The translations under genes were made by a program, and so were the position numbers. From a virus (Duplodnaviria > Caudoviricetes): a DNA stretch of 64,000 bases. Location of the stretch: the IMG/VR virus record IMGVR_UViG_3300037067_011041, positions 53,328-117,327 of that record; one strand, given 5' to 3'. The notes beneath the pieces are model-generated. The model searched no databases. It was not told the DNA's origin and saw nothing but the letters and a program-made list of their open reading frames with translations. Every line of letters begins with the position of its first letter. Position 1 is the stretch's first letter. Shown piece after piece: positions 34,842 through 64,000 of this stretch.

Positions 34842-34852
34842 CTTCTCTCCAG

Positions 34853-34950
34853 TGGAGGTGTCCGGAGTCGAACCGGAATCCTAGCCGTACTCGCTACTTA
34901 CACATGGGCCTTTTCGCTCAAACGCACGGTAGTCGAAACCTGTCACCCCC
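34853..34950 (-). ncRNA. minimal tmRNA-like RNA (tRNA-like domain only, 98 nt)
   Basis: 5' GGGGGTG-ACAGGTTTCGAC and 3' GAT-TCCGG-TTCGACT-CCGGA-CACCTCC-A; G3:U70 Ala identity; stemless D loop; about 50-nt insert. Confidence 0.82.
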
Positions 34951-42275: not shown

Positions 42276-42417
42276 AGTTAGGCGAGGCGACGGGATCGGT
42301 GTTTCATTGACGAGCTACAAGGTAGGTTAGATGTTGGGTACCCGGCCTATCTAGTCCAACCGCTCTCCCGACTACTCTACACACCGCCGCTTCCGGCCGC
42401 TAAGCCGTTGCCTAACT
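42276..42417 (-). ncRNA. putative structured ncRNA (RNA-C)
   Basis: intergenic; closing helix AGGCAACGG/CCGTCGCCT, GCTT-AGCGGCCGG-AAGC hairpin, CGGTGT/ACACCG, TAGAT/ATCTA; followed by a T tract. Confidence 0.55.
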
Positions 42418-56438: not shown

Positions 56439-56832
56439 GGCTTCTCCTGGATTTGCGCTTGACAACTGGCGCTTAGTGCTTTCGGGTCACTCAGGCCGCT
56501 CAACATTCAAGCCGATGATGCAGTACATGCTTGTTTCAGGCTCGGTAATCTCCACCTCGCTGTATTCAGGGCGAAGCACAAGCTGTGTCTGTACTTCGAT
56601 GTCCTCGCGAATTGCCCTCACTTCCAAGTCACGAAGACGTGACAGTGCGCGGGCGGCTGCCACTGCCCTGCTCTCGCCGGAGCCGATCAAGACATGGTCG
56701 AAGCCCTGGGGCTCATGATAAGTGTACTTGAACAACTCGGCCGTTTGCGGCCCCTTGAACCAGATGCCAAACTTCAGTAGTCGAGTAGCGGGCTTCACGT
56801 TGTGCGTCTCCTATGTGTAAGCTGTTTCTACA

Positions 56833-56860
56833 AGCATACAACAAAAAAGCCAAAAGTCAA
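56833..56860 (-). promoter_or_regulatory. sigma70-type promoter, first of the minus block
   Basis: TTGACT-N16-TATGCT. Confidence 0.8.
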
Positions 56861-57116
56861 GTCAATTGTCCCGAGAAAGTTGCAGGTTAGATGAAATGTC
56901 CGTTTGTTCCGCGAAGCGGCCCGGTTAAAATGTGGGAGGCGACCGGGCGGATGGCAGTCAGGCGGCGGGTGGGTCCAGTTGACCCTCAAAAATCGCAGGT
57001 TAGATATTGATGGAAACGAATTTTCCAATTGTCCCGGAAAAAGCGCAGGTTATAACGGCCGATCAGTCCTTGGGAGGGCGCGCTTATAGCGCGATCGAAC
57101 CCTCACAACCGTCAAA

Positions 57117-57149
57117 ATGCACAGTACCAAAACATTTGGTACTGTGCAT
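57117..57149. repeat. perfect 15-bp inverted repeat in the divergent intergenic region
   Basis: ATGCACAGTACCAAA-ACA-TTTGGTACTGTGCAT. Confidence 0.85.
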
Positions 57150-57193
57150 AAAAGTGATACATCCGTTCTCTTCCGAAATTTTCACTTTCCGAT

Positions 57194-57254
57194 TTGACTT
57201 TCGCAAAGTGTATTGTATGCTTCAATATCGACCGAACGAACACAACAAAGGAGG
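57194..57254 (+). promoter_or_regulatory. early promoter/leader repeat
   Basis: TTGACT-N16-TATGCT-TCAATATCGACCGAAC...AAGGAGG. Confidence 0.85.
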
Positions 57255-57259
57255 CTGAA

Positions 57260-57451
57260 ATGCCGAAGTTCCGGGTTATACTGGCTGGGTCGTTCTATTC
57301 ATTTGAGTTGTACAATTCGGCCGGTGCGGAAGTGCACGATCTTATGGAGGCTGTCGATTGTGCCGAAGAACAGTACGGTGACGAATGGCGCGAAGTGTAC
57401 AACGGGGAGGAAGGCGCTGATCGTTCTGAAGCTCCGGCCCGCGAAAATTGA
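57260..57451 (+). CDS. small acidic early protein
   Basis: AAGGAGG RBS. Confidence 0.6.
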   Translation: MPKFRVILAGSFYSFELYNSAGAEVHDLMEAVDCAEEQYGDEWREVYNGEEGADRSEAPAREN

Positions 57452-57494
57452 TTCGTTTACAACCGTGTTTACGCTTATTAGGCCGGAGGACAAC

Positions 57495-57815
57495 ATGAAA
57501 CTAACAGCCAGAAAACTCGAACTATACGACAAACCCGGCAGAGGCCACGTGGCCAACAAGATCAGTGCTGCTGTTACGGCCGCTGCAAAGCAAGCAATCG
57601 CTACAATCGGGCGTCGATACGATCGCGACAAAGCTAGCCGGGCAATATGTGATGCAATCAGCAAAATCGTGTCGCCCGTCATATTCGCTAACCCTAACTA
57701 TGGGGCCAGTGACTCGGAACCATCGCGAGCCATACGATCGGAAATGTGCAACCAAGTGGCAAAACGCTACAAACTCGAACAATGGGAGAACGAGGAATTG
57801 TACTACCAAATATAA
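57495..57815 (+). CDS. hypothetical early protein
   Basis: GGAGG RBS; YGASDSEP motif. Confidence 0.65.
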   Translation: MKLTARKLELYDKPGRGHVANKISAAVTAAAKQAIATIGRRYDRDKASRAICDAISKIVSPVIFANPNYGASDSEPSRAIRSEMCNQVAKRYKLEQWENEELYYQI

Positions 57816-57849
57816 CAATCAGAACAACCTGAATTCGAGAGAATTTGAT

Positions 57850-57877
57850 TTGACTTCGGCCTGGGCGCGAGTATACT
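57850..57877 (+). promoter_or_regulatory. promoter driving the ncRNA pair
   Basis: TTGACT-N16-TATACT. Confidence 0.85.
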
Positions 57878-57889
57878 TCAGTATCAAAC

Positions 57890-58056
57890 GACGATGCCCG
57901 CTCGGAGGGAGCGCGGGTTAGCTTAGCGGCCGGTTTCGCTACTAAACGTAAACCGGTGATATGTGGGGAAGGTCCGGACCGCCCCACTAACGGGTAGTAA
58001 AGGCCACACTATCCGGATCGGTGGTGTAAGTCCACCCCCTCCCAGCGGGCACCGTC
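57890..58056 (+). ncRNA. putative structured ncRNA with a T-arm-like hairpin (RNA-B)
   Basis: about 18-bp closing helix, GGTGG-TGTAAGT-CCACC stacked on it, internal pseudoknot and hairpins. Confidence 0.65.
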
Positions 58057-58057
58057 A

Positions 58058-58192
58058 GGTTAGAGCGATTGCAGCTATCGTGCCGAATACAGGCCCGGTA
58101 ACGATCGGCCGGGTTATGCCGGGAGTGGGGATTGTACAGTCTCCGCCGGACGAAACAAACTATTTCCCACGATAGCTGCAATCGCTCTGACC
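58058..58192 (+). ncRNA. putative ncRNA with a 25-bp terminal stem (RNA-D)
   Basis: 58058-58082 pairs with 58168-58192 (one G:U); two internal hairpins. Confidence 0.65.
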
Positions 58193-58222
58193 GCCACAAC
58201 CAGAATAGCCAGGAGAGTCCTC

Positions 58223-58687
58223 GTGACCGACACATCCTACAAAACCGCTATTGCCAGAAACAAGCTTAGCGCTCCTGCGGCTTGGTTGAATCGTGCCGGT
58301 CGTCTCAAAGGTAGGATTCTTGACTATGGGTGCGGCCGTGGCGGTGATGCCGACAGATTGGGTTGTGAGGGCTATGACCCTCACTATCGGCAGGGTGAGC
58401 CGGTTGGGCTGTTTGACACGATTATGTGCAACTTCGTGCTTAACGTGATTGAGTCGCACAGTACGCGACGATCCGTTTTGTCTGCTATTTCCGATTTGCT
58501 TACTGAGTACGGGCGTGCGTACATTACCGTTCGCACCGATCGTAGCGGGTTGTCGGGTCGTAAGAGGCACACGTGGCAAAGTCTGATTGTTCTGGATTTG
58601 CCGGTTGTGCATCGTGGGAATGGATACATCACTTACATGCTTTGCAAGGGTGATGACAATTGTGCCATGAATGTGGAGGTTTTCTAA
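58223..58687 (+). CDS. class I SAM-dependent methyltransferase
   Basis: LDYGCGRG.D, GYDP, FDTIMCNFVLNVI. Confidence 0.85.
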   Translation: MTDTSYKTAIARNKLSAPAAWLNRAGRLKGRILDYGCGRGGDADRLGCEGYDPHYRQGEPVGLFDTIMCNFVLNVIESHSTRRSVLSAISDLLTEYGRAYITVRTDRSGLSGRKRHTWQSLIVLDLPVVHRGNGYITYMLCKGDDNCAMNVEVF

Positions 58688-58871
58688 CGTGAAGCATACT
58701 ATCGAATTGACGGAAGATGACGTTCGGCAGGCCATTGTCGAACATATCAATCATTCCGATCTTGGCGTTCTTATCAGGCCGGACCAAATTTCGTTTCGCA
58801 TCGTCGATTACGGTGAAAGCTTTGAGGGCGCTTTTGTCGATCTTGACAGTTAAAAATTCCGGAATTCCGAT

Positions 58872-61267: not shown

Positions 61268-61319
61268 CAGCGGGCCGGAGGCCAGCGGGCCGGAGGCCAG
61301 CGGGCCGGAGGCCAGCGGG
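61268..61319 (+). repeat. tandem 15-bp repeat CAGCGGGCCGGAGGC, about 3.5 copies
   Basis: direct reading. Confidence 0.9.
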
Positions 61320-63822: not shown

Positions 63823-64000
63823 CAGCGGGCCAGCGGGCCGGAGGCCAGCGGGTGACGTCGTCAGCGGGCCGGAGGCCAGCGGGTGACGTCGTCAGCGGGT
63901 GACGTCGTCAGCGGGCCGGAGGCCAGCGGGTGACGTCGTCAGCGGGCCGGAGGCCAGCGGGTGACGTCGTCAGCGGGCCGGAGGCCAGCGGGTGACGTCG
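63823..64000 (+). repeat. tandem repeat of about 31 bp (CAGCGGGCCGGAGGC + CAGCGGGTGACGTCGT), runs off the window end
   Basis: direct reading; no unique spacers. Confidence 0.9.

Follow-up and report, generated by a model that had tools for sequence, protein, structure and literature searches.

A folded non-coding element of six helices, RNA-B, lies directly behind a predicted promoter in the genome of an uncultured phage (G000), the record of which spans 117,327 bp; the whole stretch of DNA analyzed here, referred to as the window, covers the 64 kb at the right-hand end of that record. Weighing the evidence presented below, RNA-B could well be a real orphan non-coding RNA that acts in trans and occupies the cargo slot of a stereotyped promoter cassette, a reading that is preferred here but held tentatively, and under which we infer that the element is transcribed, processed and active in trans. 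The coordinates of the element, of its helices and of the neighboring features are collected in Table 1.

Table 1. Features of the RNA-B locus and of related loci. Positions are those of the window unless a locus handle is given.
Feature	Position	Strand	Length	Remarks
Left-flank ORF	ATG 57261 to 57815		184 aa	Reading of the ORF map
Non-coding gap	57816-58222		407 nt	Contains promoter, RNA-B and RNA-D
Predicted promoter TTGACTT-N-GTATACTTCA	57850-57880	+		9 copies in the window vs 0 expected; upstream AT-rich element common to the copies
Extended-promoter copies (nine)	42230, 45233, 54360	-
	57850, 59365, 60466, 61342, 62112, 63047	+
RNA-B, six-helix folded non-coding element	57890-58056	+	167 nt	Sequence features, fold, RNALfold z, pair probabilities
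Closing helix, 5' strand GACGATGCCCGCTCGGAGGG	57890-57909	+		Partner 58037-58056; mean pair probability 0.99
Weak hairpin CGC/GCG	57912-57928	+		3 bp, 11-nt loop; probability 0.67; "D-like" by position only
Hairpin with loop CUACUAAA	57929-57957	+		10 bp, one bulge; nested probability 0.93; alternatively pseudoknot stem 2
Hairpin GUGGGG..CCCCAC	57963-57987	+		Inner GGU/ACC stem; probability 1.00 and 0.94
Hairpin CGGGUAGU/ACUAUCCG	57991-58015	+		9-nt loop AAAGGCCAC; probability 0.99
T-like hairpin GGUGG-UGUAAGU-CCACC	58020-58036	+		Probability 0.99; no linker to the closing-helix 3' strand
Closing helix, 3' strand CCCTCCCAGCGGGCACCGTC	58037-58056	+		Partner 57890-57909
RNA-D, conserved structured RNA	58056-58205	+		25-bp closing stem; separate family from RNA-B
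RNA-D homologue in G002	L011:705-850	-
RNA-D homologue in G004	L052:2352-2495	+
Class I SAM methyltransferase gene	58223-58687	+	154 aa	First ORF of the predicted transcript; RBS AGGAGAG at 58210-58216

Promoter and genomic context of RNA-B

The promoter ahead of RNA-B is of the predicted sigma-70 phage type and is repeated across the window. Its core hexamers (TTGACT-16-TATACT, 57850-57877) match the consensus at 10 of 12 positions, and its predicted start site falls at about 57883-57886, with the closing helix of RNA-B beginning 4-7 nt later. Both the position of RNA-B directly behind a promoter and its beginning a few nucleotides past the predicted start site, as proposed in a preliminary description of this DNA, are therefore supported. 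In eight of the nine copies of the promoter a ribosome-binding site (RBS) and an ATG follow within about 45 nt, and most copies are followed by a shared leader (ATATCGACCGAACAAC..AAGGAG) and then the ATG. The copy at 57850 is the only one of the nine without an adjacent RBS and ATG, and it enters instead 343 nt that contain no ORF start. The type of promoter suggests transcription by the host polymerase, early or middle. A promoter scan of the RNA-B locus returned no promoter on the minus strand.

No ORF endowed with an RBS overlaps RNA-B, in line with the earlier statement that no credible ORF covers it, and GC content at the locus is 62%, compared with roughly 53% for the window. The entire 57880-58222 segment folds with z = -8.0. 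A scan of the same segment for terminator-like sites found none, and RNA-B, RNA-D and the methyltransferase gene thus constitute one predicted transcription unit. For the 184-aa ORF on the left flank, a family match was sought and none was obtained. The most likely start of that gene is ATG 57261, which is preceded by a promoter at 57194, the shared leader and an AAGGAGG (57194-57263); the start assigned by the ORF finder, TTG 57213, is unlikely.

Fold, stability and strand of RNA-B

The closing helix of RNA-B pairs at 18 of its 20 positions by Watson-Crick pairing, the two mismatches being one A.C and one C.C, and it encloses five hairpins. The pairing of the CGGGTAGT/ACTATCCG hairpin was confirmed in the RNA-B sequence. 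All the sequence features named in the preliminary description are recovered: a terminal helix of about 18 bp, a hairpin of 5 bp and 7 nt (GGTGG-TGTAAGT-CCACC) set flush against the 3' strand, and the GTGGGG/CCCCAC and GGGTAG/CTATCC hairpins are found in both sequence and fold, and the TAGCG/CGCTA stem with its loop complementarity is present in the sequence. The minimum free energy of the element is -83 kcal/mol (z = -4.8), a value equaled by none of 200 shuffled sequences, and pairing probability exceeds 0.9 in all helices except the 3-bp CGC/GCG hairpin.

In a z-score scan with RNALfold, RNA-B scored -5.16 on the plus strand and -5.97 on the minus strand. To calibrate the chance level, the 64-kb strand was dinucleotide-shuffled block-wise five times and a threshold of z <= -5.16 was applied; the shuffled strands yielded 0, 1, 0, 1 and 1 local structures, or 0.6 per 64-kb strand, against about seven on the real plus strand, among which RNA-B is the weakest. 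Stability alone thus carries a false-discovery risk of about 10% and is not significant window-wide; it becomes significant because of the a-priori position of the element in a non-coding gap behind a promoter, and the case for non-randomness rests mainly on this position. The reverse complement of RNA-B folds equally well or better, so that the call of strand depends on the promoter, the orientation of the genes and RNA-D, from which we infer the plus strand. On folding alone, a role at the DNA level or of the minus strand would also be compatible.

A putative H-type pseudoknot can be drawn within the element, combining a 5-bp stem 1 (TAGCG/CGCTA, 57924-57941) with a 7-bp stem 2 (CCGGTTT/AAACCGG). 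In the nested ensemble, stem 1 has a probability of 0.005. For the nested hairpin the computed energy is -15.3 kcal/mol and for the pseudoknot -12 to -15 kcal/mol, the latter a rough estimate obtained from stack sums of -22 plus a penalty of 7-10 kcal/mol; the two forms are about iso-energetic, and an H-type pseudoknot is hence possible in this energy model.

Search for relatives of RNA-B

Relatives of RNA-B were sought at the level of RNA families, related genomes and large sequence collections. A cmscan search of 57400-58700 against Rfam 15 gave zero matches to any family even at E <= 10, and no family match to RNA-B was obtained at gathering scores, in agreement with the initial proposal that the RNA is novel with respect to described Rfam families. 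The entire intergenic gap, compared by blastn with 50,697 GenBank phages, returned no RNA-B homologue. Four related genomes, three found via the DNA polymerase (G001-G003) and one via the methyltransferase (G004), lack RNA-B by both blastn and a single-sequence covariance model of the element (R1). A structure scan of G004 did detect other very stable, gene-poor stretches, none of which resembles RNA-B. From 240 methyltransferase-family loci that were fetched, 160 were searched (80 from IMG/VR and 80 from JGI metagenomes, the remaining 80 being GTDB-genome loci, mostly Bacteroidales), and none yielded RNA-B by R1, nhmmer or blastn. The exact 17-mer of the T-like arm occurs three times in IMG/VR, twice within coding sequence and once as the T arm of a phage tRNA, and none of these matches is related to RNA-B. 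Neither a pattern scan of IMG/VR for the pseudoknot core nor single queries with the flanking proteins in the same collection reached a relative. Within its own genome RNA-B is single-copy, and none of the collections searched supplied a homologue in which compensatory changes could be read. On these sequence comparisons, RNA-B appears to be an orphan restricted to its lineage, and is best treated as a candidate from one genome.

RNA-D and the methyltransferase gene

RNA-D, which starts 1-3 nt downstream of RNA-B, provides the comparative evidence for this transcript. It is found once per genome, in G000, G002 and G004, and scans with its core patterns, aimed at finding further clade members, returned only G002 and G004. 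The core GGTTATGNCGGGAGNGGGGNTTGTACAG is kept in all three genomes, while the closing stems of 23-25 bp are completely different in sequence, and RNAalifold applied to the three sequences identified 13 compensatory pairs, together with three G:U pairs in all three on the plus strand. No Rfam family matches RNA-D. This covariation indicates that the predicted shared transcript carries selected RNA structure. RNA-D resembles RNA-B in belonging to the same predicted transcript and strand and in enclosing its internal hairpins within a long closing helix, but differs from it in possessing homologues with covariation, and the two are unrelated in sequence; a covariance model of RNA-D misses RNA-B and the model of RNA-B misses the RNA-D loci, and the possibility that RNA-B is a paralogue of RNA-D was accordingly discarded. 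Judged by comparative sequence evidence, RNA-D is a better-supported candidate for a new RNA family than RNA-B.

The two relatives that bear RNA-D, G002 and G004, do so without RNA-B. In G004 the order is promoter, an ORF of 147 aa, RNA-D and methyltransferase gene, and in G002 RNA-D lies behind a small ORF and ahead of the next promoter cassette. Since the 147-aa ORF of G004 occupies the slot taken by RNA-B in G000, RNA-B behaves as exchangeable cargo and not as a regulator of the methyltransferase.

The methyltransferase itself carries a conserved HKTAxxRxxxSxP motif at its N-terminus, and its residues 6-88 give a partial match to TIGR04096, a DNA phosphorothioation-associated methyltransferase family (2.7e-17). 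Its family is widespread, occurring in phage contigs and Bacteroidales genomes, and its closest relatives, P0002 and P0003, are 76% and 71% identical to it. Apart from the partial dnd-related match, fold and family searches identified it only as a class I SAM methyltransferase of generic type, and they revealed no link with RNA.

Other structured elements and repeats

Several further structures and repeats were observed in the window and in G004. At 57040-57206 the sequence folds locally with very high stability (z = -6.8), in a structure that includes a perfect 15-bp hairpin, ATGCACAGTACCAAA-ACA-TTTGGTACTGTGCAT. This structure falls within the ORF-poor 56820-57190 segment, where GC skew suggests a switch from leftward to rightward transcription; it may serve as an operator or a terminator, or represent one more RNA. 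On the minus strand at 42389-42405, a region designated RNA-C contains GCUU-AGCGGCCGG-AAGC, which could form a textbook D-arm-like hairpin with a stem of 4 bp and AGC.GG at the start of its loop; taken over its full 161 nt, the RNA-C region shows no unusual stability (z = +0.3). A 13-nt sequence common to RNA-B and RNA-C, GCTTAGCGGCCGG, was dismissed as a link between them, since by an arithmetic estimate chance would produce about 0.5 matches of this kind in each genome. Units of 15/16 nt (CAGCGGGCCGGAGGC and CAGCGGGTGACGTCGT) are tandemly repeated in arrays at 61268-61319 and 63823-64000, placed just upstream of promoters and at the end of the record. The heptamer CAGCGGG is seen 29 times in the window versus 9 expected, an excess that lies entirely inside these arrays. 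In G004, a gene-poor region (G004:60195-61057, L263:195-1057) contains two local structures, each with z of about -7, along with pyrimidine-rich repeats and a run of (GAT)n, and could correspond to an origin or an end region, or encode additional RNAs.

Alternative explanations

The alternative that fares best next to a trans-acting RNA is a cis-acting 5' leader, whereby RNA-B, as a structure at the 5' terminus, would shield the early transcript from decay that depends on the 5' end, or serve as a processing or regulatory domain of the RNA-D/methyltransferase operon. Stem-loops at the 5' end stabilize bacterial mRNAs, and both the closeness of the closing helix to the predicted 5' end (4-7 nt) and the lack of a terminator between RNA-B and the methyltransferase gene are consistent with such a role. 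It is nonetheless considered unlikely, though far from negligible, because G004 has RNA-D and the methyltransferase without RNA-B, because 0 of the 160 searched methyltransferase-family loci carry anything like it, because a six-helix domain of 167 nt far exceeds the needs of 5' protection, and because the predicted fold shows no pairing between RNA-B and the methyltransferase RBS, which is 150 nt away. The absence of RNA-B from the other methyltransferase-family loci searched also led us to reject a riboswitch-like regulator tied to the methyltransferase.

It is rather unlikely that the element encodes no functional RNA and is instead a DNA-level site such as an inverted repeat bound by a protein, a MITE-like palindrome with terminal inverted repeats of 20 bp, or a remnant of cassette shuffling. 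The equal folding of both strands, the chance rate of 0.6 structures per 64-kb strand, the absence of RNA-B from all relatives and the mosaic of exchangeable cassettes that makes up the early region would all be compatible with such an origin, as would the presence in the 3' strand of the closing helix of CAGCGGG, the core of the tandem arrays near promoters. Outside the arrays, however, this heptamer is at chance level (10 observed versus 9.2 expected), and its occurrence in RNA-B was rejected as a meaningful link. The element is moreover present in a single genomic copy with no visible target-site duplication, it consists of five separate GC-rich local hairpins and not of one long palindrome, and its exact position between promoter and RNA-D is hard to credit to chance.

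The preliminary description interpreted RNA-B as a tRNA mimic, and this claim did not withstand the specific tests applied to it: neither ARAGORN nor Rfam recognizes a tRNA, T-loop positions 55 and 56 are absent and the arm sizes are wrong. In the decoy version of this idea, the inner helix and T-like arm would imitate an acceptor/T minihelix, matured by RNase P or RNase III, and would sequester either a host enzyme that binds tRNA or a defence nuclease directed at tRNA. The resemblance lies in the cloverleaf order of the arms (after the closing helix and 2 nt come a weak D-like hairpin, then a long arm, a pair of extra ones and last a flush T-like arm), in the inner part of the closing helix, where 6 bp and the C.C mismatch give 7 positions counted from the T-like stem, and in the loop CUACUAAA, which fits Y-U-NNN-R-N plus one extra base. 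The T-loop of tRNA comprises U54, Psi55, C56, R57 and A58 and makes elbow contacts with G18/G19 (PMC4810234). Compared with the generalized T-loop, the UGUAAGU loop of RNA-B keeps U1 and A5, but has G and U at positions 2 and 3 in place of the Psi55 and C56 required for the elbow contacts (PMC4810234). An identical arm, GGTGG-TGTAAGT-CCACC, forms the T arm of a tRNA-Arg(TCT) called by ARAGORN in an AT-rich IMG/VR phage (L006:1759-1830), from which it follows that UGUAAGU T-loops do occur among predicted phage tRNAs.

Against these points, ARAGORN called no tRNA at RNA-B (it called three elsewhere in the window), and the tRNA (RF00005) and tmRNA (RF00023) models did not match the RNA-B locus at E <= 10; the sole Rfam tmRNA match of the window is at 34850-34950. 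The acceptor-like end is followed by AGCG and not by NCCA, with no discriminator-CCA. The closing helix spans 20 positions compared with the 7 bp of a tRNA acceptor, the "anticodon-like" arm has 10 bp and an 8-nt loop compared with 5 bp and 7 nt, which makes it twice the normal length, two arms are extra, and the D-like hairpin is marginal. A cloverleaf-like arm order with a flush acceptor/T-like stack is generic in multi-branch RNAs, and each of the resemblances has a chance of about 1 in 10 to 1 in 16 of arising at random, all of them having been picked post hoc. A tRNA-mimic decoy is thus regarded as quite improbable. Very improbable is the further proposal of a new kind of effector RNA with tRNA topology, in which an acceptor-like inner helix of 7 positions would stack on the T-like arm and two arms would be added. 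Once excised from an early transcript by RNase III or RNase P, it would titrate a host tRNA-recognizing factor at the onset of infection, for instance a defence nuclease that attacks tRNAs or an enzyme that modifies or processes them.

Comparison with known structured RNAs

RNA-B was compared with three kinds of known structured RNAs, and is a member of none of them. T4 rnaC and rnaD and the "stable RNAs" of T5 are phage-encoded, promoter-driven, non-coding and highly structured, with tRNA-like arms and no assigned function; they reside within tRNA gene clusters and are conserved inside their phage groups. RNA-B is likewise phage-encoded, non-coding, highly structured and, by prediction, promoter-driven, but it sits in an array of early-gene cassettes beside a methyltransferase gene and no relative of it was found. 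In T7 early mRNA, each RNase III site consists of one hairpin, roughly 50-60 nt in size and interrupted by an internal loop. These sites share with RNA-B a long near-perfect duplex in a non-coding part of an early polycistronic transcript, which for RNA-B is predicted, but the closing helix of RNA-B encloses five further hairpins, and for that reason it is more likely to be a release device than the whole function of the element.

The Y RNAs of the YrlA type, some of which are phage-encoded, are 100-170 nt long and have a long stem formed by their 5' and 3' ends, and this terminal stem encloses a multi-hairpin module with a T-arm-like hairpin, all features in which they resemble RNA-B (Chen et al. 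2014, PMC4201824). YrlA is encoded within about 4 kb of rsr (Ro60) on the same strand (PMC4201824). In contrast, G000 lacks a Ro60/TROVE gene, the T-loop of RNA-B lacks the tRNA consensus, and Rfam yields nothing for RNA-B at E <= 10. A search of the complete 117-kb genome for the TROVE family (PF05731) gave nothing at E <= 1, with positive controls detected, and the 5' end of RNA-B, GACGAUGCC, misses the YrlA 5' motif GNCGAAN0-1G (PMC4201824) by one base (GACGAUG). Two other candidates were rejected on gene content: a retron msr-msd, with no reverse transcriptase (PF00078) matched in the genome and a methyltransferase as the downstream gene, and an RNA partnered with a CCA enzyme, there being no PolyA_pol gene in the genome. 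What remains is a plausible instance of a phage-encoded structured RNA of unassigned role, represented by one genome.

Proposed expression of RNA-B and its implications

For the preferred reading, that of a trans-acting RNA in a cargo slot, a course of expression can be outlined. Host sigma-70 RNA polymerase would initiate some 5 nt before the closing helix, and the nascent RNA-B would fold co-transcriptionally into a compact domain of six helices, the closing helix and its five hairpins. Transcription would run on, meeting no terminator, through RNA-D and into the methyltransferase gene. RNA-B might then remain attached as a 5' domain, although its release by the double-strand-specific endonuclease RNase III is more likely. 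Both closing helices contain the stretch of about two turns of near-perfect dsRNA characteristic of RNase III substrates, and cleavage within them (18 of 20 positions paired in RNA-B, 25 bp in RNA-D) would separate both RNAs from the methyltransferase mRNA; on the modeled folds, release by RNase III is probable. As RNA-B has no terminator of its own, its existence as a discrete RNA species depends on this putative processing. The freed, very stable RNA-B would bind a protein of the host or of the phage and thereby act in trans.

Phages carry many structured RNAs of unassigned role, and several recent ones are decoys or sponges against bacterial defences. The value of RNA-B lies in being a lead, from one genome. 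Should it prove to be expressed and stable, RNA-B would offer an example that is compact and tractable by experiment, 167 nt long, with its own strong promoter and placed in an exchangeable early cassette, and it would imply that the early "cargo" slots of these phages hold RNAs as well as small proteins.
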